IMG/VR virus record: IMGVR_UViG_3300032073_005220
Coordinates: 32,001-96,000 of that record
Length of the DNA: 64,000 nt
From: a virus
Direction: 5' to 3' (one strand)
Positions 7,193-46,366 of this stretch are shown piece by piece. Under the pieces are notes generated by a model, which was given only the letters and a program-made list of their open reading frames with translations, was not told the origin of the DNA and did not search any database. Made by a program: the position numbers and the translations under genes. Positions within the stretch are counted from its first letter, which is position 1. Each line of letters opens with the position of its first letter.

Positions 7193-8464
7193 TTAAAGCA
7201 ATCCTGTAATCGGAGCAGCCCAGCCTTGAGATTCACTATGGGCCCATACTATCCAACTGTTTGGTTTAATCTCCGTCTGGAACTCCCTCCATACTTTACA
7301 GTAACCGTCAGGATCTGTTTTCATTCTATGAATTTCGTCTTTGTTGGCATCTTGCCTGTATATGTCGTTGCCTTTTTCGTCTTTGAAAGCCACACACCAA
7401 AAATCGTAATCTTGCAAAGGAACCTGCTCGAAAGAGATGTCAATACAGTGTCTGAATATGGATAAAAGACAACCATAAAACTCTTCGTCTGATACGTCAT
7501 TATTTATATTGGGAGCTACTTTATCTTTGGTCTGAGGACTTATAGCTCTTTTCTTGAAACACAACCCAGCGTATTTTTCATACTCTAAAAGAGTTCTCTC
7601 TGTACCAAATCCATACTCTAAAAAATCTTCATCCTGTTTTTCTCCGTCCATGCCAAAAAGTTTTCTGTTTCTTAGATGAGACCTGTCGTTTGTTACATGC
7701 CAATTATAATGATCATCCCAATGTTTGGTTCTTCCTTTTCTTGTATATTCATGCCAACATATAACTTGGTTGGGATGAAATAAATCGTATCCATGAGTAA
7801 AAGCTCTAGCGGCAATACTAATTTCTTCTCCGTGAAAATACATATTGGGGTCATGTCTAACTTCTTTAGCAAAGGAACCTAAAGAAAAAGCAAAATGAGC
7901 ACTATAAAATCTAGCTGGCAAAGGCTTACTAGAATCGTCATAGGAATCAAATGTGGCAGGAAGGAAGAACACAGCGCCTTCCGGAATAAATCTATCAAAA
8001 TTCATTTTCCAAGGTAGGTTAACCCTGCTTCCTGGATCGTTATCTGGATCAAAACTAGGTATATAAGCTGTTATCAAAGGTTTTTTATATCCATCTTTCT
8101 GCAAGCCTTTAAGCATATCTTTCAGCTTGGTGTCCCAATCCTTAACAAATCTATGATGACTATCTAGTTGTAAAGTATAATCTTCATTATCATACAAAGA
8201 CTGAACCGCATTTCTTGCCCAGCACACCCCTTTGGCTTTTTTGTAGTCAATCTCTATAATCTTAACTCTTTTGTCATCTTTATATTCGTCTAAATTATCC
8301 CATTCGTCATCGACACATCTTTGCCAAGCGATACCGACATTAATATCCTCTGGATGGTCAGCATTAGCAAACATATCTCTGAGTGTCGGCAATAGTTGGG
8401 GGTCTCTATAAGAAGCTATCTGTATAAATATTTTTTCTGGTTTATTTTTATTGGCATTGCTCAT
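7193..8464 (-). CDS. GT60 / Skp1-type polypeptide GlcNAc transferase-like
   Basis: IFIQIASYRDP, GVCWAR, LQLDSHHRF..WD, SAHFAF, FHGEE motifs. Confidence 0.8.
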   Translation of the reverse strand: MSNANKNKPEKIFIQIASYRDPQLLPTLRDMFANADHPEDINVGIAWQRCVDDEWDNLDEYKDDKRVKIIEIDYKKAKGVCWARNAVQSLYDNEDYTLQLDSHHRFVKDWDTKLKDMLKGLQKDGYKKPLITAYIPSFDPDNDPGSRVNLPWKMNFDRFIPEGAVFFLPATFDSYDDSSKPLPARFYSAHFAFSLGSFAKEVRHDPNMYFHGEEISIAARAFTHGYDLFHPNQVICWHEYTRKGRTKHWDDHYNWHVTNDRSHLRNRKLFGMDGEKQDEDFLEYGFGTERTLLEYEKYAGLCFKKRAISPQTKDKVAPNINNDVSDEEFYGCLLSIFRHCIDISFEQVPLQDYDFWCVAFKDEKGNDIYRQDANKDEIHRMKTDPDGYCKVWREFQTEIKPNSWIVWAHSESQGWAAPITGLL

Positions 8465-20493: not shown

Positions 20494-21853
20494 GCTAATA
20501 ATTTTTGATTTAGACGGAGTATTAGTAGATGCAAGAGAGTTGCATTACGAAGCTTTAAATGCTGCATTAGAATATATTGATAAGAAATATGTTATAAATA
20601 GACAGGAGCATTTGTCTACTTACGACGGTCTTTCTACCACTAAAAAACTGCAGATGCTTACAAAAGAAAAGCATTTACCTCAAAATTTACATCACGAAAT
20701 ATGGAAGCTCAAACAAGAAAAAACATTAGATATTATCCGTGATTTTCAACCTGACCTAAGGATTATTGCCCTATTAAAGAATTTGAAACAACAAGGTATA
20801 ACGGTCGCATGCGCTACGAATTCTATTAGGGACACGGCAAAATTACAGTTAATAAAGAAAGGTTTTTTTGAGCATATTGATTTTATGTATTCTAATCAAG
20901 ATGTGAATAAGCCTAAGCCTAGTTCAGAAATATATCTCAGATGTATGCTAAAAGCAGATGTTGACCCACAAGAAACAGTAATTGTAGAAGACTCTCATCA
21001 CGGCAGAAAAGCAGCTATTAATAGCGGAGGACATTTGTGTGCTGTCAAAAATAGTACTGATGTCACACAAGATAAAATACAAAATTTTATAAATAAAATC
21101 AACAAACAAGCCACCATAAAACCCAAGTGGCAGGGAGGCAAGATGAATGTACTTATTCCTATGGCCGGTGCTGGATCAAGATTTGAACAAGCAGGTTATA
21201 CTTTCCCCAAACCTCTAATTGAGGTTAAAGGCAAACCAATGATACAGTTGGTAGTTGATAGTCTTAATATTGATGCTAGGCACATATTCGTGGTACAAGA
21301 ATCTCATTATGAAAAATATAACTTAAAACACTTGTTAAATCTAATATCTCCAAACTGTGAAGTTGTGTGCGTGAATGGAGTAACGGAAGGAGCAGCTTGC
21401 ACAACCTTGCTTGCTAAAAAGTTTATAGACAATAATGAACCTCTTGTGTTCGCTAATTCAGATCAGTTTTTAGATTGGGATAGTAATGAATTTATGTATT
21501 CTATGGAAGCCGACGAAATTGATGGAGGCATGCTGACCTTTACAGCCACTCATCCCAAATGGAGTTTTGCTAAATTAAATGACGACGGTTTTGTTACTGA
21601 AGTAGCAGAGAAAAAACCGATCAGTGATATTGCAACAGTCGGAGTTTATTATTGGAAACGTGGAGCTGATTATGTAAAATATGCCGAACAAATGATCAGA
21701 GAAAATATTAGAGTGAATAACGAGTTTTATGTATGTCCTGTGTTTAATGAGGCTATTAAAGATGGTAAGAAAATCAAAACTTTCCATTTTGATGGTATGT
21801 GGGGCATAGGTACTCCTGAAGATTTAGATATATTCAATAAAGAATATAAGTGA
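20486..21853 (+). CDS. HAD phosphatase fused to a BcbE-like nucleotidyltransferase
   Basis: FDLDGVL, ATNS, KP, VEDS; then IPMAGAGSRF, PKPLI, NSDQ, EKKPIS, GTPEDL. Confidence 0.88.
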   Translation: MIKLIIFDLDGVLVDARELHYEALNAALEYIDKKYVINRQEHLSTYDGLSTTKKLQMLTKEKHLPQNLHHEIWKLKQEKTLDIIRDFQPDLRIIALLKNLKQQGITVACATNSIRDTAKLQLIKKGFFEHIDFMYSNQDVNKPKPSSEIYLRCMLKADVDPQETVIVEDSHHGRKAAINSGGHLCAVKNSTDVTQDKIQNFINKINKQATIKPKWQGGKMNVLIPMAGAGSRFEQAGYTFPKPLIEVKGKPMIQLVVDSLNIDARHIFVVQESHYEKYNLKHLLNLISPNCEVVCVNGVTEGAACTTLLAKKFIDNNEPLVFANSDQFLDWDSNEFMYSMEADEIDGGMLTFTATHPKWSFAKLNDDGFVTEVAEKKPISDIATVGVYYWKRGADYVKYAEQMIRENIRVNNEFYVCPVFNEAIKDGKKIKTFHFDGMWGIGTPEDLDIFNKEYK

Positions 21854-37783: not shown

Positions 37784-38863
37784 ATGTCAGATATACAAAA
37801 AATAGACACTAGTAAGTCTATAGATCATGGTGGACTTACCGTTAGGCATCCATTCGGTGAAGGAGAAGGTCGTGACGCTAAGATATCTAGTCAGGACATC
37901 AAGACTCAAGCAGATAATTTATTAAATAAGTTTAAACCATTAAGAAGGTTTGAAGCAAAGACATTCTCATCCTTGTACTCTATGATGAATGATGGAACTC
38001 TAGGAATATATCAGTCTGACCTACCCTATCCTGGATTATCTAATTTTACATTAAAAACAACAATTGATCTAGGCATTCCTGCATTCTCTCTTAATGCCCA
38101 ACATTATATCTTTAATTATGGAAACTATCAGTACGTTATGTGTCCTGATAGTAATATTAAATATTTAGATTCAGCTTTTAATATAGCTGAAATTGATATT
38201 AATAATAGATTTGACTCTATTTTTGTCAAAGATACCAATACCATATTTTCTGTAATAGATAGAACTGTTTATGAAATTGACTTATCAAATAACACCAGTT
38301 CTGTATATGGAACTCTAGATAGTTCTATAATATATCCAATGTCTTATATTTTATATGACTCGATAAACAATAAATTTGTTGTAATAGATGGAGAAGAAAC
38401 CTCTGACAATATATATGTATTAGATAGTTCTCTAAATATCATTTTTACTATAAATATGACGTCAAGTTATACCGGGAAAATACCTACATGTATATTTGAT
38501 AATAAAAACGGTACTATTTTAATTATTTTACAAAATACAAATTTAGAATCAGAATTGTTAAACCTACAATTAGACTTATCTGATAATAGCATCTCAGAAA
38601 TAAATGCATCAAATATAATTTATAAAAAATATTACTTAGATATATTTAATAAGTATAGTGTGCAAAACGATGGTACGAATTCTGTTATATATGATAACTC
38701 CAACACTTTAGTTTCTTTTCCTGTTAATAAATATCAACATATTCTAAATATCAATCCAGTTACTGATACAATAATTGTGAAGCAGTATGACGGCAAAAAA
38801 TGTGTTTATGCATTAAGCACTATTACCTCTTCTAAACCTCAAAAAATATTAGAATTAGATTAA
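37784..38863 (+). CDS. Beta-rich (propeller-like) putative virion protein
   Basis: Repeating short beta-strand patterns (VYEIDLS, YDSINN, IYVLD, INPVTD). Confidence 0.5.
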   Translation: MSDIQKIDTSKSIDHGGLTVRHPFGEGEGRDAKISSQDIKTQADNLLNKFKPLRRFEAKTFSSLYSMMNDGTLGIYQSDLPYPGLSNFTLKTTIDLGIPAFSLNAQHYIFNYGNYQYVMCPDSNIKYLDSAFNIAEIDINNRFDSIFVKDTNTIFSVIDRTVYEIDLSNNTSSVYGTLDSSIIYPMSYILYDSINNKFVVIDGEETSDNIYVLDSSLNIIFTINMTSSYTGKIPTCIFDNKNGTILIILQNTNLESELLNLQLDLSDNSISEINASNIIYKKYYLDIFNKYSVQNDGTNSVIYDNSNTLVSFPVNKYQHILNINPVTDTIIVKQYDGKKCVYALSTITSSKPQKILELD

Positions 38864-39456
38864 TGAGTAATTTAGTAATAGCACAATCTGGAGTTCAACA
38901 GACACCCACACCCACTCCGAATCGTTCTGCAACACCAACTCCAACACCAAGTGTTACATCTACCCCTATAGTGGTCACCGTTACTCCAACTGCTACATCT
39001 ACAGTAACGCCTACTCCTACTCTTACCAAAACACCAACCCCTACCCCAACAACATCTCCTAGACCAATATCTATATTACATCACCCTCAATCTAAAACAA
39101 TAGACATAGAAGAAAGACAAAATTGGTTTTTTAGAACAACCACAGACAGTGATTCTACTCATTACTATTCTTGGCAATACTCCGACAATGGGGGTTCTGA
39201 TTGGAATTTTATTACTGTAAGCGGAACCGCTAACACTTCTAAAGAATCTAATCCAACGTCTTACTTATTCTTAAATAATCTCACGCCCGCTCAACATAAC
39301 AATCAATACAGATGTCAGATTACTAACGGAGTATTTACTACTGAAACAAATGCGGCCACACTTACAATATTAACAGATATCAATATCACGACACAACCAG
39401 TAAACGCTACTATCTCAAGCAGTGGCACAGCAACATTTTCCATAGGTGCAGAATAA
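38863..39456 (+). CDS. Pro/Thr-repeat plus Ig-like domain protein
   Basis: (TP)n tract; HPQS...YSWQYS..GG..W...YRCQIT; ends in a partial Ig domain. Confidence 0.75.
   Translation: MSNLVIAQSGVQQTPTPTPNRSATPTPTPSVTSTPIVVTVTPTATSTVTPTPTLTKTPTPTPTTSPRPISILHHPQSKTIDIEERQNWFFRTTTDSDSTHYYSWQYSDNGGSDWNFITVSGTANTSKESNPTSYLFLNNLTPAQHNNQYRCQITNGVFTTETNAATLTILTDINITTQPVNATISSSGTATFSIGAE
38902..39060 (+). repeat. Mucin-like Thr-Pro coding repeat
   Basis: TPTPTPNRSATPTPTPSVTSTP...TPTPTPTTSP. Confidence 0.85.
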
Positions 39457-42400
39457 TGTCTATCAATTATCAATGGCAACAATCTAAAGACAACGGAACA
39501 AGCTATGGAAATATCTCAGCTACTGGATCAACTTTACAAATAAACCATATCAAACCCAACCAACACAATTATCTTTATAGGTGTCGAGTTAACAGAGATG
39601 GCAGCAGTAAGTATAGGTACAGCGATCCTGCCAAACTTACAGTTTTATCAGAGATATCTCTTGGTAAATTACCTAGCAATGTTTCTATTGATGACGGAAA
39701 TCTTTCTTTAAGCCCAACTGTTACTGTTAATAGCAGCGCTACAACATCTTTTCAGTGGCAATATTCTGATGATGAAGCTATCAATTATTACGACTTACCA
39801 TCGGCTACAGGATCTGGACTGTCTTTAACTAGTTTATCTAGTGCAAACAATAACTGGCTATATAGACTGCAGGCTAAAAGTTATTATTACTCAGGCATAG
39901 TTAATACGGTTAAATCAAACAATACTCTAGTTCATATCGAAAATGATTTACCTAAACTACAAATATGGAGACAACCTCAGCACTATTATGGAACAGGACA
40001 ACCCGAATTTGAAGTTTTAGTTGCTAGCACAGGATTAAACAGCAACAATATTCCAAATACTTTTTACGATAATTCTGCAACAGATATTACATACGCATGG
40101 GAATATTCTTTTGATGGTCAAAATTGGAGACCAGCAACATATCAATCTAGTGGACAAAATAAAATATACGCGTCAAACAATATAGCTGGTGTTCAATATC
40201 GAGTGAATGTCTCTAAAAGTGGCCACTCGGTAGAGTCAGCATCTGCTTCAATCATACAAGAATTCTGCTTTCCTCCATACTCAAATAATTTTGATGATGA
40301 ATCTAAAATATATAGCATGAATCATTTTGACATCAGAAGCTCTAACGGAAAGACAACTTTAGGACTATTTAGTAATTGTCCTCAAATTCTAGAAACTGCA
40401 GAACGCAGAGCCAATATTAAGATGTTGAGCCTAGAATCTGAAGGAAATAAGTATGATCTAGTTTTTAATATGATTAGAAGTACAGATAGTCTCACAGTAA
40501 AGCCTTACAACTTAGCAATAGAGGATATATCTCTATTTAAAAACAACACAATAATTAAGAAGGCTAGTGTGAATCCAGATTCAATAGAGGATGTAAAAAC
40601 ACCATTCGATCTAAATTATTCATCATATAATAGCACTATAACAATATCACGCCCTGATATTTCTGCTGGTGCTGCTGGCAGGCCATACGGAGACGGGTAT
40701 TGCATAAATCTTGCTAATCCCTTGCACGGTGATAACTTAAATAATATAAATTATAAAAACTTTATTAGCAATTGTATAGCTAAGTCTAGTAGTATACGAT
40801 ATGGGGCTATTAAGGTAGGAGTTACAACTACAGGCAACTCCTCCGTAGATACTGATTTAATATCTAAACTTCCAACTGAATTAAAAATTAAAAATGGAAA
40901 TGACACAATTGTTAACTTAAGGATTAGTTATGAAATAATAGGTAGCGCAAGCGCTATATCAAAAGATACATTAGCAAATATAAATGTAGTAATATTAAAT
41001 CAAGGATACAATTGGTCTTCTAGAAGCTTTACTCAATCAGAACAGGAAGCTTTAAAATATCATGTAAATGACGGAGGAGGATTAATTACATCCGAATGGG
41101 TCTTATGGAATAGTGCTTACGGAAGATTTGACTACCTGAAAGAAGTGTTTGCTGCAGAACCTAGTCGTGACTACCAACTTGAAAATCAAGTGAGATATTA
41201 TAAATATAATTCTAATTTAATTATAAATAACGAGGTTTCAGACGATTTTAAATTCGCCCCTACCAACGTTGCTGGAGGAACAGAAACTACATTTACTAGT
41301 TTCAAAACAGGATCTCAATTATTCTATATCAAAGAACCAAAACCGATTTCTATTATTAATTTAAAACAAGCAAAATTCAATTTGCTAGATTTATTCTATT
41401 TCACAGCACAAGAGGCAGAAAATACAACCAACTCAACTCTTGATGGACTTAATAAGTTTTTTACAGGATCTTTTCATTGGGAAGGCAAAGTATCAAAAAA
41501 TATAAAAATTGGAGGAGCTTTATATTGGATATATAAATCTTTGATTGAATACCACAGAAAAGCTGACGAGGGAGTAGATAAACCCAATTCTGCTTGGTCC
41601 TTAGGCAGAGGTCTTATAGGAGATAAAACCGATGGTATAAATCACATACTTAGCGAGAATGGGTTAAATATATCTGATTTTACATTCAGTAATCTGGAAA
41701 CAATTAAGGAGTCTCCCGAAGAAGAATTAACAGCCAACGACAATTTTTGGAAAGATATGTCTAAATTGTTAAGTTCTTTAAAGCCGTCTAATAGTAATTA
41801 CAGGCATAACAGAGAAGTAGTAACAAACAAATGTAATATAGTACAACAACCAAATTTTAAGTACAAGCCCAACCCTTTGCCGTCAGGAAACATACTAATA
41901 GATTGTTTCGTAACAAATCCTTCAGAACTTCCTATTTCGTATTGTCTGCAAAAAAACAGTGGAAACAATTTTGTTGATATACAACAAGATAGTTTTGTAA
42001 ATAATAGAATAATATTTTCGGGGCTTCAGTCATCTGATCTTGATACTGGAATAAATCATAGGATATTATTCAAAACTTCATATGAATATCCTGAAGGAAC
42101 AGGAACACCTTCAGATTCTTTCCAATTTGTTAGCAGGAAAACAGGTAGACCCAGAAAAGATATTACCGAAGGACTTCAAGACTATTCTCAGAGCACGATA
42201 ACCGATGGTAATGGAGTTTTTGTAAAATTCATCGAATCTAGTGGAGCTAACATACATGATGGTATTTCTTCATCTTCTTTTGGAAATTCAGGAAATATTA
42301 TTAGTTGGCAATATTCTTATGATAATGTTAATTTTTACAATACAACATCTGGCGTTAATGTATCAGGAAGCAGTAGTATTCTAACTTTAGGAAGTGGCAA

Positions 42401-42806
42401 TCACAATAAAAATATTAGATATTCTTTCCATCCTTTAACAAACTTGAAGCATACTGACAGTGTAGGTCAAAATACTCCCATTATTAAATCCATAGCATAT
42501 AGTTCATCAAATAGCTACGACCCTCAAGGAGCCGTGACTTTTAGTTCTAATATAGATAACTATTATACTTCTGGAGGACAGCAGTATTGCAGTATGTCTG
42601 TCTACTTAAATAATACAGGAATTAATACAAATATTAATCCTTCAGATATTACATGGGAACAATACAATTACTCAACGAACTCTTATGATGGCCTGCCCAG
42701 CCTTTCTGGTAATAGGCTCTTTGCTGTCAGCGGAATTAAAGTGTCTTTGATAGACACCTACAAATTTAGAGCCATAATCAACAACAGGATATTTTATCTA
42801 TCATGA
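39456..42806 (+). CDS. Large Ig-like repeat protein (putative virion/adhesion protein)
   Basis: Multiple YQWQ.S.D.G / YR.RV Ig units at both ends; distinct central region. Confidence 0.75.
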   Translation: MSINYQWQQSKDNGTSYGNISATGSTLQINHIKPNQHNYLYRCRVNRDGSSKYRYSDPAKLTVLSEISLGKLPSNVSIDDGNLSLSPTVTVNSSATTSFQWQYSDDEAINYYDLPSATGSGLSLTSLSSANNNWLYRLQAKSYYYSGIVNTVKSNNTLVHIENDLPKLQIWRQPQHYYGTGQPEFEVLVASTGLNSNNIPNTFYDNSATDITYAWEYSFDGQNWRPATYQSSGQNKIYASNNIAGVQYRVNVSKSGHSVESASASIIQEFCFPPYSNNFDDESKIYSMNHFDIRSSNGKTTLGLFSNCPQILETAERRANIKMLSLESEGNKYDLVFNMIRSTDSLTVKPYNLAIEDISLFKNNTIIKKASVNPDSIEDVKTPFDLNYSSYNSTITISRPDISAGAAGRPYGDGYCINLANPLHGDNLNNINYKNFISNCIAKSSSIRYGAIKVGVTTTGNSSVDTDLISKLPTELKIKNGNDTIVNLRISYEIIGSASAISKDTLANINVVILNQGYNWSSRSFTQSEQEALKYHVNDGGGLITSEWVLWNSAYGRFDYLKEVFAAEPSRDYQLENQVRYYKYNSNLIINNEVSDDFKFAPTNVAGGTETTFTSFKTGSQLFYIKEPKPISIINLKQAKFNLLDLFYFTAQEAENTTNSTLDGLNKFFTGSFHWEGKVSKNIKIGGALYWIYKSLIEYHRKADEGVDKPNSAWSLGRGLIGDKTDGINHILSENGLNISDFTFSNLETIKESPEEELTANDNFWKDMSKLLSSLKPSNSNYRHNREVVTNKCNIVQQPNFKYKPNPLPSGNILIDCFVTNPSELPISYCLQKNSGNNFVDIQQDSFVNNRIIFSGLQSSDLDTGINHRILFKTSYEYPEGTGTPSDSFQFVSRKTGRPRKDITEGLQDYSQSTITDGNGVFVKFIESSGANIHDGISSSSFGNSGNIISWQYSYDNVNFYNTTSGVNVSGSSSILTLGSGNHNKNIRYSFHPLTNLKHTDSVGQNTPIIKSIAYSSSNSYDPQGAVTFSSNIDNYYTSGGQQYCSMSVYLNNTGINTNINPSDITWEQYNYSTNSYDGLPSLSGNRLFAVSGIKVSLIDTYKFRAIINNRIFYLS

Positions 42807-45800
42807 CTGCTTTACTTATCAATGTAACTCAACAGCCTGCTCTTTTAAGTTCTTTAGAAAATGTAAAACTGAATACAGATATATATTACGATAATAATAG
42901 ACAAAAAGATTTTTTACAAGAAAATAATACTCTTATTTATGAGTGGTTGTACTCTGTTGATGATGGTAAAACTTTCAGAACACTCAATGAAAATTCTGCT
43001 AATCTTACTATAGATTTAGATACTATTAATATAAATTTTATATACAAACTAAAAATATCTATTGATAGGCCTTCATCAGAGATAGCATCAAATACAGATA
43101 GTTCTACGGGTTTTATTACAAATAAAAGTAATAAATTTTTATTATCTAATCAGGAAAGCGACAATTCTGAAGTTTGGTACAGCAATAATATTAAAATTAA
43201 TCACAGTATAGATATAGCAGATATAATTGTAGATTTTGCTTTGAACGACATTATCGAACAATTAGAAGATCAGATTGATTTTGGTTTAACTTCAGATGCA
43301 ATAGATATCCAAGAAAATGAGTCGTCACAAATTTCTATTATTCCAGATGACGAAACAGCCACGATTGTTGAAGTAGATACAGATGAAACTAGCAGCACAT
43401 TATGGTTTCCGGGTCTAATGGATTGCTATACTCCGGCCACAATGACTAGTTGCGGCATCACCATAAATTATTGTATTTATGAACAGAAAAGTATATTGGT
43501 TGATGGTTTGGGTAATTGTGGCAGCATAAATGACTGTCCAGGAAATGGCTGCGTTCTAGACGGAGGTCCTGTAATTACAGCCAACGGACCTGTCGGCAAT
43601 TGGCTAAATGTTAAGCTGGGAGATTCATATACAGCATGCTGGAAAAATTTTGAGGGTGCCATAGACCCCCAGCAGTGGGACGGACAGAGAAGTAAATCAG
43701 TAGACTCATGCGGCGAACCGATAATAGGTGATTCTCAATATGACTCTTTGGTGCTTTGCGATGACCCTGGTAAGGCATATGCTAGTGCGTATTTCTGCGC
43801 AAATCCGCCTGGTGAAGGCAATATGTCGTGTCCCGGACAAATAGTTAGTAATCGGTGTGACCCAGGTGGAGCAATGAATGACATGCCGTGCTTAGGAACA
43901 TTTCAACGATTGGCTGTTCCCAGTAACAAGTATCGCTGCCACCAAAATAAATACTATTACCCGTCTACCTGCAGGTGTAACGGCAAGATCCTTAGCTCTA
44001 TAGATACAAATCTCGCCACATGTCAAGCAGACCAAGACCAATGCAAAACGGTTGATCCTCCAAATTTATCATATTATTGTAGGGAATTAGGCGTTACTGT
44101 TCCTGTTTTGAGAGAAGTAGATGATGATGGAAATTACACCGGAGTATTGTATGTAAACTTCGGACCAGTTGCCGCACCTCCCGGAACCACAGAAAGTGGT
44201 AGGCTTGGCTGGGCTTTTCCCAAAGTATACACAGCACACTTACAAGGTTCAGCAAAAGGGGCGAATTACTCGCTATCTAAAAGCATTACCTTAACTGTTA
44301 AAAGTAATTCAGGGAAAACATCGAGCGAATGTTCTATTAAGACACTAACAGCTGCTAGCGATCCCTGGGGAGGTTGTATTGAAGCGGGTAATTGTTATGA
44401 ACATGATGACATACCTAAAACACTGCGTTGTTTTGCTAGTGATAAGTATTACAAAATTCAAGGATTAGGAAATAAAACCTTTAGCTGCTGGACAGAATGT
44501 AACAAATTTACCCCAGCAACGGCAACGGTGCCTGCGTTTAGAATTTATCCTGTAACCACCAGACCTGAAAGTTTGTATGGGTTATTATCATTAGCAGAAG
44601 CAGAAGCTAAACTAGAAAAAGATAATAAAGGTAAGGCTTATGCTGTAAGAAGGGACACTCTAAGACCAGGTTTTGGGTCAACATGCGTAGAAAGTTGTAA
44701 AAACTCTAAGGGATTTCCTAGTAAAAACTCCACAAGATTCTCCACTAATGGAGGTATAGTACAAGGATCTCTTGGGTTGGTTAATCCGTGCGTGAAATGT
44801 GGTTGCAAAGAAGATAAAGATTGTGGTGGATGCGGCGTATGTATGGATGGAGAGTGCATAGAATATCCTAATGACAATCCTAATTCGGCAGCGGTCCATC
44901 CTTGTGAAGCAGCAGCGAAAGGTGGAGGTACAGTATCATGTTGTGTTGGTTACGATGCTTTAGGAAAGAAAATAGTTAGCTGTGCTAAGTCGAAATATTG
45001 CGAAACTTGTCAAGATCCGCAAGTTGATGATCAAAGTATTCCAACAGGTGCTATTGTCGGTACTGTTGCTAGAGTAAGTTTTGACTCAAATGATCCTGCA
45101 AAAGATTGTTGTAATGGAGTAGTTTATGACCCTAGATGCCAAATTTGTGATGTTTCTACAGTTAGGCCTAAATGTAGACCTCCTGAAGAATGTAGATTAA
45201 CAGGAGACACTACTACTTGGGTTGATGAGGATGGATTTGAACAACAGTCTGACAATTATCATTGTATAATTCCTCCGTGCCCTCCTTGTCAAATAGAAGC
45301 TGATGATTATGACACAACAGGAAATTGCATAAGTTATAACGACACTCCAGAGGCTAAACAAAATTGTGAAGAATGTGAACCAATAGATAATCCCGATTAT
45401 CCTGGCGATAGCGATGAGCCTCTAATTCCAAATTTTTATTCTACACTAGACGAAGGACAGACATGCTGCCAAACAGGAGCAACTACCTTTGTTCCGTGCT
45501 CAAACTGTTGTGCTGATTCAGAAACAGGCTACAATACCTGTTGTCCTGGTGCAGACGACACTTGCTGCGACGGAGCTTGTTACGCAACAGTTGCCGGCAG
45601 AACTATCTGTTGTAACGGAAAAGAAGCCGCTTTTGGGGATGCTTGTAATCTTTGTAGCTTTGACGAATTCGGACAACAGGAAAGTAAATGCGATACTTAT
45701 TATAGTTGTTGCAGTAAAACTGTATCTGGAGTAGAATTTTTTACAGGGTGCTACAGCAATACCTACTGTGACTGTGAAACATGTAGCGGCGGAGAAGTAG

Positions 45801-45877
45801 TAACGGTTGAATCAGACGATCCAGATGATTGCTGTTACGCTGGTGCAGCTCCTCAGTCTATTTTCTATGAACCATAA
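42803..45877 (+). CDS. Ig-like N-terminus plus acidic linker plus Cys-rich protein
   Basis: VTQQP..YEWLYS.DDG; about 75 Cys (my count) in the C-terminal ~820 aa. Confidence 0.75.
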   Translation: MTALLINVTQQPALLSSLENVKLNTDIYYDNNRQKDFLQENNTLIYEWLYSVDDGKTFRTLNENSANLTIDLDTININFIYKLKISIDRPSSEIASNTDSSTGFITNKSNKFLLSNQESDNSEVWYSNNIKINHSIDIADIIVDFALNDIIEQLEDQIDFGLTSDAIDIQENESSQISIIPDDETATIVEVDTDETSSTLWFPGLMDCYTPATMTSCGITINYCIYEQKSILVDGLGNCGSINDCPGNGCVLDGGPVITANGPVGNWLNVKLGDSYTACWKNFEGAIDPQQWDGQRSKSVDSCGEPIIGDSQYDSLVLCDDPGKAYASAYFCANPPGEGNMSCPGQIVSNRCDPGGAMNDMPCLGTFQRLAVPSNKYRCHQNKYYYPSTCRCNGKILSSIDTNLATCQADQDQCKTVDPPNLSYYCRELGVTVPVLREVDDDGNYTGVLYVNFGPVAAPPGTTESGRLGWAFPKVYTAHLQGSAKGANYSLSKSITLTVKSNSGKTSSECSIKTLTAASDPWGGCIEAGNCYEHDDIPKTLRCFASDKYYKIQGLGNKTFSCWTECNKFTPATATVPAFRIYPVTTRPESLYGLLSLAEAEAKLEKDNKGKAYAVRRDTLRPGFGSTCVESCKNSKGFPSKNSTRFSTNGGIVQGSLGLVNPCVKCGCKEDKDCGGCGVCMDGECIEYPNDNPNSAAVHPCEAAAKGGGTVSCCVGYDALGKKIVSCAKSKYCETCQDPQVDDQSIPTGAIVGTVARVSFDSNDPAKDCCNGVVYDPRCQICDVSTVRPKCRPPEECRLTGDTTTWVDEDGFEQQSDNYHCIIPPCPPCQIEADDYDTTGNCISYNDTPEAKQNCEECEPIDNPDYPGDSDEPLIPNFYSTLDEGQTCCQTGATTFVPCSNCCADSETGYNTCCPGADDTCCDGACYATVAGRTICCNGKEAAFGDACNLCSFDEFGQQESKCDTYYSCCSKTVSGVEFFTGCYSNTYCDCETCSGGEVVTVESDDPDDCCYAGAAPQSIFYEP

Positions 45878-45898: not shown

Positions 45899-46366
45899 AT
45901 GAGTAGTATTAGAATTAAAAATTTACCTGCTTCTACTGGAGTATTAACTACAGATAACGTAATTGTTAGCTCTAATGACTTAAGCTATAAACTTCCGATA
46001 TCTGATATGAAAAAAGAATTTAATAAACAAAGTTCTACCTCCTTGACTTCTAGTACTGAAACAAATTACGATACTTCTACTAGTGATATTGGGACTATAT
46101 TAAACGTAAATAAAAGCATAGTTTCTACCATAAAAATTACTACAGCAACATCAAATGGAGCAAATATTGGGGATTCTATTGATGTTATTAACACTAGTTC
46201 TTTACAAGATGTTAGAATATTAGCTCAATCTGGGGTATATATAAGAAGCATGGGTAATCATTTAGATTTAACCAGGCAATATAGCGTAGGTAAAATTACT
46301 AAATTTTCCAGTAATGAATGGATGCTTACTGGAGACTTTTTCACTTCTCCTAGTGGTACATTCTAA
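45899..46366 (+). CDS. Tail-fibre-type small structural protein
   Basis: N-terminal IRIKNLPAST; C-terminal L.RQYS..KITK....EW.LTGD motif typical of phage fibre tips. Confidence 0.6.
   Translation: MSSIRIKNLPASTGVLTTDNVIVSSNDLSYKLPISDMKKEFNKQSSTSLTSSTETNYDTSTSDIGTILNVNKSIVSTIKITTATSNGANIGDSIDVINTSSLQDVRILAQSGVYIRSMGNHLDLTRQYSVGKITKFSSNEWMLTGDFFTSPSGTF

Follow-up and report, generated by a model that had tools for sequence, protein, structure and literature searches.

One immunoglobulin-like (Ig) domain is divided between two consecutive genes of a large uncultured phage. The product of the upstream gene, A, ends with the first strands of the domain (A, A′ and B), and that of the downstream gene, B, begins at strand C. 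The cut was identical at 16 of 16 related loci, at B identities down to about 26%. The best explanation, to which we give a probability of roughly three in four on the basis of sequence comparison, structure models and analogy with known systems, is that A and B are separately translated subunits which would be joined by two-strand complementation of the Ig fold. The genes lie in a window of 64,000 nucleotides, which is part of a 157,014-base IMG/VR virus record (IMGVR_UViG_3300032073_005220) that is linear and estimated to be complete.

The Ig domain divided between A and B

To locate the cut, we used an HMM of 89 positions, derived from 263 intact repeats that belong to unrelated proteins. 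The tail of A matches positions 2-25 and the head of B positions 29-89; the two are complementary and do not overlap, which places the cut in the B-C loop. A sequence-only reading of the window had recognized the A and B strands of an Ig domain at the end of ORF 38863 and the remaining strands at the start of ORF 39456, and both assignments agree with these matches (A residues 173-197, B residues 2-63). Its description of the overlaps was likewise accurate: TAATG (39454-58) and ATGA (42803-06) are where it placed them, each downstream gene uses the −1 frame, and this frame is open across both junctions, for 37 codons upstream of junction 1 and 11 codons upstream of junction 2. Coordinates are collected in Table 1.

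Table 1. Coordinates of genes, domains and junction elements in the window, and of one extension at a related locus.
Feature	Position	Strand	Description
Gene Z	37784..38863	+	359 aa; predicted β-propeller; directly 5′ of A throughout the near clade
Gene A	38863..39456	+	197 aa; N-terminal short strand, Pro/Thr-rich linker, intact I-set-like Ig domain, C-terminal half Ig
Pro/Thr-rich linker of A	38902..39057	+	about residues 14-65; read from sequence
Intact Ig domain of A	39067..39369	+	residues 69-169; HMM positions 2-89, 49 bits
Putative donor half-domain of A (strands A, A′, B)	39379..39453	+	residues 173-197; HMM 2-25; under purifying selection
SD-like AGGTG	39444..39448	+	7 nt 5′ of B start; putative function
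Junction 1, TAATG stop/start overlap	39454..39458	+	in B-C loop of split Ig
Gene B	39456..42806	+	1116 aa
Putative acceptor half-domain of B (strands C to G)	39459..39644	+	residues 2-63; HMM 29-89, 46 bits
GATase1/ThuA-like fold in B	40803-41351	+	about residues 450-632
Last Ig domain of B	42510..42803	+	about residues 1019-1116; strand G cut after its first half, in all relatives
AGGA, weak SD-like site before junction 2	42786-42789	+	
Junction 2, ATGA overlap	42803..42806	+	−4, −1 or +1 nt in relatives
Gene C	42803..45877	+	1024 aa
Gene D	45899..46366	+	155 aa; weak match to minor tail protein families; similar gene 3′ of C in both clades
Extension of A beyond the half-domain	L051 5350-6215		Pro/Thr linker and 156-aa domain

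Profile and fold matches gave the strand order A-A′-B-C-C′-E-F-G with conserved tryptophan in strand C and tyrosine in strand F; the score of the repeat against Pfam I-set is below the curated cut-off. The C-terminal segment of A, about 25 residues long, matches two strands of the HMM and is also modelled as strands. The A and B halves are always adjacent, neither being found without the other among the compared loci, and no half-Ig module besides this pair was found elsewhere in the phage genome. Conserved cysteine, lysine/asparagine or intein-like residues are absent from the A and B ends.

The relatives that carry the break are independently assembled genomes at 50-58%, 31-41% and 26-30% identity; they come from many samples and are spread across the whole tree of B. 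About 21 homologs of B all start at strand C and finish in strand G. None of them is fused to A or to C, a result that extends to proteins of 932-2660 aa searched with a profile, although word-based searches can miss fusions. Comparing homologous loci for conserved break positions, a check proposed with the sequence-only reading, thus yielded the same break at 16 loci and no fused form. An orthologue of B was not found among GenBank phages or the best 80 GTDB matches, which contain generic repeats only, and a literature search with incomplete coverage retrieved no description of an A-B-C protein family.

The cut itself is constant and its surroundings vary. Between 5 and 268 residues follow the strand-B core and leaders of 3-35 residues precede strand C, compared to a total of 9-16 in intact repeats. 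At two loci (L053, L061) A ends with a Pro/Thr tail. At a third (L051) A does not stop after the half-domain but runs on through a linker of about 110 residues into a 156-aa domain, which has no match in Pfam or the Atlas; the B gene of this locus lies five bases further on and again opens at strand C. Judged by its sequence, this extension appears to make the joint a natural branch point.

Codon comparisons show that the tail of A is under purifying selection, with 56 synonymous and 16 non-synonymous differing codon pairs in its last 10 codons, where the Shine-Dalgarno-like (SD-like) site may add constraint. Over 26 codons the ratio is 164:159, and for the intact domain of A it is 166:162.

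Structure models gave a compatible picture. Folded alone, B yields a model that begins directly at strand C. To model the two halves together, we chose a relative (L061) in which A and B are in frame and read through the single stop between them to obtain one linked chain for AlphaFold, with alignment rows over the B part only and no depth on the A part. The tail of A was modelled as ordered strands (pLDDT 68-86), the natural linker remaining coil. Residues 1-128 superimposed on titin I1 (1g1c) over 92 of 98 residues (rmsd 2.6, Z 11.1) and on 8s9p_C over 94 of 97 residues (Z 11.3), and matches to single I-set domains generally covered 90-94 residues at an rmsd of about 2.5. Since the part contributed by B is only about 72 residues long, the strands of A belong to the superposed domain. 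The model thus points to compatibility of the two halves with one I-set domain, as distinct from binding; it describes a linked chain from a relative, and split halves tend to rejoin by their likeness to known Ig domains.

Frame, spacing and alternative explanations

At the 16 loci the gap between A and B is −1 nt in five cases, +1 in four, +2 in three, and −4, +3, +5 and +57 in one each, so that all three frames occur; one further contig also has a gap of +1. Between B and C (15 loci) it is −4 in nine cases, +1 in five and −1 in the remaining one. The downstream gene is therefore in the −1, +1 or 0 frame at junction 1 and in the −1 or +1 frame at junction 2, and even near relatives with shared terminal peptides differ in frame (L022 versus L021 and L039). 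A slippery heptamer of the form X XXY YYZ was found at none of the 16 junction-1 or 15 junction-2 loci, and in the relatives the downstream frame is often open for just 1-4 codons. The TAATG and ATGA overlaps are real but carry no weight as a special signal, as such overlaps are the commonest junction type in the window (14 of 61 close junctions). The A-TTT-T stretches that the sequence-only reading had pointed out are also present; however, they represent Thr-Phe codons and vary synonymously in relatives (TTT/TTC, TTT-A). The AGGTG 7 nt before B forms a duplex of −6.1 kcal/mol, compared to a genome-wide gene median of −4.2 kcal/mol, as expected of coupled reinitiation.

The break is kept whatever the spacing and frame, and the ends are free; the relatives indicate that each half is synthesized as part of a protein of its own. 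We propose that A, B and C would be translated separately, albeit with translational coupling, as structural proteins of one modular appendage. After translation, the hairpin of A would slot into the open sandwich at the N-terminus of B and give one complete Ig domain, so that the Ig chain would run on across a non-covalent plug-and-socket joint. As the cut would leave two free termini at a surface loop, either end could carry extras, of which the Pro/Thr linkers, the Pro-rich leaders and the one whole domain would be examples, the joint being a possible branch point.

Programmed −1 ribosomal frameshifts at both junctions, which had been put forward from the sequence as a source of nested fusions of up to about 2300 aa, agree with what is seen in this genome, where B and C are each shifted by −1 relative to the preceding gene and the frame is open for 37 and 11 codons. 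In the near clade, the joined length from strand-B core to strand-C core (9 residues) would also be within the intact range, and Ig domains appended by frameshifts in either direction are established in phages (PMC5009743). The relatives are nevertheless difficult to reconcile with this mechanism. In those whose B is 37-41% identical, the terminal peptides are the same and yet B lies in the +1 frame; others have frame 0, two stops and gaps of up to 57 nt; no junction has a slippery heptamer, and A-TTT-T is synonymously variable. Further, the frame-0 residues, which an upstream shift would replace, are conserved right to the stop, SD-like sites precede B, overlaps of this kind are the usual junction type in this phage, and up to 268 residues extend beyond the half-domain, with freely varying ends. 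We therefore consider frameshifting very improbable. A covalent connection of A and B by ribosomal bypassing, stop read-through or post-translational ligation would be conceivable for the two relatives in which the genes are in frame (L061 and L053), but frames and gaps vary among the relatives, as do the terminal tails, and the ends have no conserved cysteine, lysine/asparagine or intein-like residues, so that we give it scarcely any credence.

The halves might also be completed in another way, through strand swapping in homo-oligomers of A or of B or through a different partner, or they might be tolerated leftovers. The tail of A does resemble strands A and B of any repeat, which makes swaps into other repeats conceivable. 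Yet the halves are exactly complementary on the HMM and always adjacent, the genome contains no second half-domain, and the tail is conserved like the intact domain; we judge this explanation unlikely. An assembly error or a recent nonsense or indel mutation, which the sequence-only reading had listed as grounds for rejecting its proposal, is refuted by the homologs, as the identical break recurs over the whole tree, in genomes that were assembled independently and come from many samples, and may be set aside. In this case, relatives alone separate the frameshift from the split-subunit explanation, without an experiment, and they provide a comparative example that out-of-frame breaks within phage Ig domains need not be frameshifts or errors. 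Annotators should not merge or repair such genes.

Gene B, junction 2 and gene C

Following its putative acceptor half-domain, B contains two intact Ig domains, a middle part with a GATase1/ThuA-like fold, degenerate Ig-like domains and a truncated last Ig domain. The later Ig domains are degenerate in the window and intact in the distant clade. From this sequence architecture, B appears to be a conserved shaft, with Ig repeats flanking a GATase1/ThuA-like core. The middle part is predicted to be GATase1/ThuA/GIFT-like, its nearest solved match being 3rht from Planctomyces limnophilus (Z 9.4).

The alignment of the last domain of B with the intact domain of A (hhalign E 7e-6) breaks off halfway through strand G, and in the distant clade this last domain ends at about HMM position 79; the truncation is conserved as strongly as junction 1. 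In the model of this domain the A-B hairpin is lengthened. The first Ig domain of C has its own strands A to G, with an insertion that delays strand G, and C is thus not the back half of a domain. Of the proposal that the last strand of B's domain comes from the next gene, the truncation of B in strand G is borne out, and C is a candidate donor. Between 4 and 10 residues precede strand A in C. Compared with the missing G segment, the N-terminus of C scores 1-6 bits, mostly not above shuffles, whereas real segments score 5-12 bits. A complex prediction for the last domain of B and the first of C (score 0.06, mark 0.32) counts neither for nor against the joint. Strand complementation, the other mechanism that had been proposed for both junctions, is thus well supported at junction 1, and its support at junction 2 is limited to the truncation of B. 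C probably docks on the truncated domain, possibly via an extended first strand in a second pilus-like joint; alternatively, the truncation may be a capped end, with C docking otherwise.

C consists of the N-terminal Ig domain, an acidic linker and a variable Cys-rich body, with 75 cysteines in residues 200-1024 and no Pfam or Atlas match. The middle of C is 22-34% identical among phages whose B proteins are 37-57% identical, and C ends in an octapeptide that is conserved across the near clade. In one relative (L022, 5937-9023), identity to the window is 68% over the final 400 residues of C and just 37% in B, which suggests exchange or recombination of the tip. These comparisons suggest that C is a variable distal module subject to tip exchange. 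They lend partial support to the swappable tip of the sequence-only reading, as the Cys-rich body has diverged far more rapidly than B and has a mosaic appearance. The body (43400-45874) has many CC and CxxC patterns, which may reflect metal binding or disulfides and are uncommon in virion proteins that assemble in the cytoplasm. In two relatives (L014, L015) C carries long Gly-Ser-Pro4 repeats. The F-G insertion of C is at 43090-43170 in the window; in the distant clade (L045, L046, L049) residues 95-120 of C are a repeated L-T-E-D-G, a motif common in phage fibre proteins, and gene D of this clade starts with a motif of the R-I-x-x-L-P type, a conceivable docking partner for that repeat.

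The A proteins of the distant clade have a length of 1100-1450 aa and contain propellers, Pro/Thr linkers and lectin-like domains (PA-IL, DUF642), ending in the same intact Ig and half-Ig as A in the window. From this lectin-like, propeller and Ig content we infer that A, B and C would belong to an adhesive virion appendage.

Z and A may possibly form a third joint. The Z/A gap varies among relatives (−4, −1, 0, +2, +6). In distant relatives the Pro/Thr linker follows a propeller immediately, and the first ten residues of A are similar to the last strand of that propeller. Homology between Z and the second propeller of the distant A proteins was non-significant (negative HMM scores, hhalign probability 9.7%). 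A more far-reaching reading would make the Z-A-B-C operon a chaperone-free snap-together fibre with three different fold-completing joints, in which the first strand of A closes the propeller of Z, the hairpin of A completes the first Ig domain of B, and the first strand of C completes its last in the manner of pili, the B-C loop ends being branch points for extra domains; we regard it as tentative, with the odds against it. If it were true, the 25-residue hairpin and the 62-residue socket would be a natural tag-and-dock pair. For the A-B joint by itself, the minimal pair (A 173-197 and B 2-63) is small and, if it binds tightly, would be a natural peptide-tag/catcher pair.

Known systems and genomic setting

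In chaperone-usher pili (Fim, Pap, Caf1), an incomplete Ig domain is completed in trans by the neighbouring subunit, which donates strand G. The junctions described here resemble these pili in the predicted completion of an Ig domain by a neighbour and, at junction 2, in the absence of part of strand G. They differ in that junction 1 would supply strands A and B from a C-terminus, whereas the pili supply G from an N-terminal extension. Where the pilus acceptor lacks G, junction 1 lacks A and B instead and junction 2 only the second half of G, which C may donate. Also unlike the pili, the subunits are all different and present in single copy, do not form a polymer and have no signal peptide. 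The scanned neighbour genes include no chaperone or usher families.

The closest solved parallel is the baseplate tripod of Lactococcus phage Tuc2009, where a 25-residue C-terminal hairpin of BppU completes the sheet of BppA domain 2, resulting in a titin-like composite (PMC4742702). As there, a C-terminal hairpin of about 25 residues would complete the product of the next gene in a titin-like composite, here according to models. The BppU-BppA joint hangs an accessory module on a virion protein, and its acceptor is the last domain of BppA (PMC4742702); in contrast, the acceptor here is the first domain of the 1100-aa multi-Ig protein B, and the A-B joint is in line within an Ig chain, with free ends that carry variable tails and once a whole domain. 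The likeness is one of principle and not of protein family, and host and phage type differ. With the A-B pair, a type of joint known from a single solved structure, that of a lactococcal phage, would also occur in a distant lineage of uncultured large phages, where it seems to connect long Ig chains in line and to permit branching and tip exchange.

In T3, A2, A118, A500 and PSA, programmed frameshifting at a slippery site adds a whole Ig-like domain to a capsid or tail protein (PMC5009743). Here, too, an Ig-like part is out of frame with an upstream structural gene; however, the break is inside the domain, a slippery site is absent and the frame is not conserved. The same I-set-like repeat family (PF07679, PF13927, phrog_27200) occurs, at about 28-38% identity over several repeats, in surface proteins of Bacteroidota and in proteins of T4-like cyanophages; in those retrieved the repeats are intact in one chain, unlike the split between A and B.

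About 35 kb separates the A-B-C genes from the principal cluster of large putative structural genes, a distance that counts somewhat against a place in the virion. Outside the window, the virus record contains a gene (20815-21774) that scores above the curated cut-off for the prepilin-type family PF07596 (DUF1559). This family is characteristic of Planctomycetota, and the gene points to a planctomycete as the likely host of the phage. Mucin-like Pro/Thr linkers are found in A and in several structural genes (e.g. 7193-8464). The genome has many glycosyltransferase-like genes, and another reader has suggested that the phage may encode O-glycosylation. Two relatives (L003, L016) have a gene for a trypsin-like protease of 284 aa before an 82-aa ORF located 5′ of Z, a gene that is absent at the corresponding position of the window.
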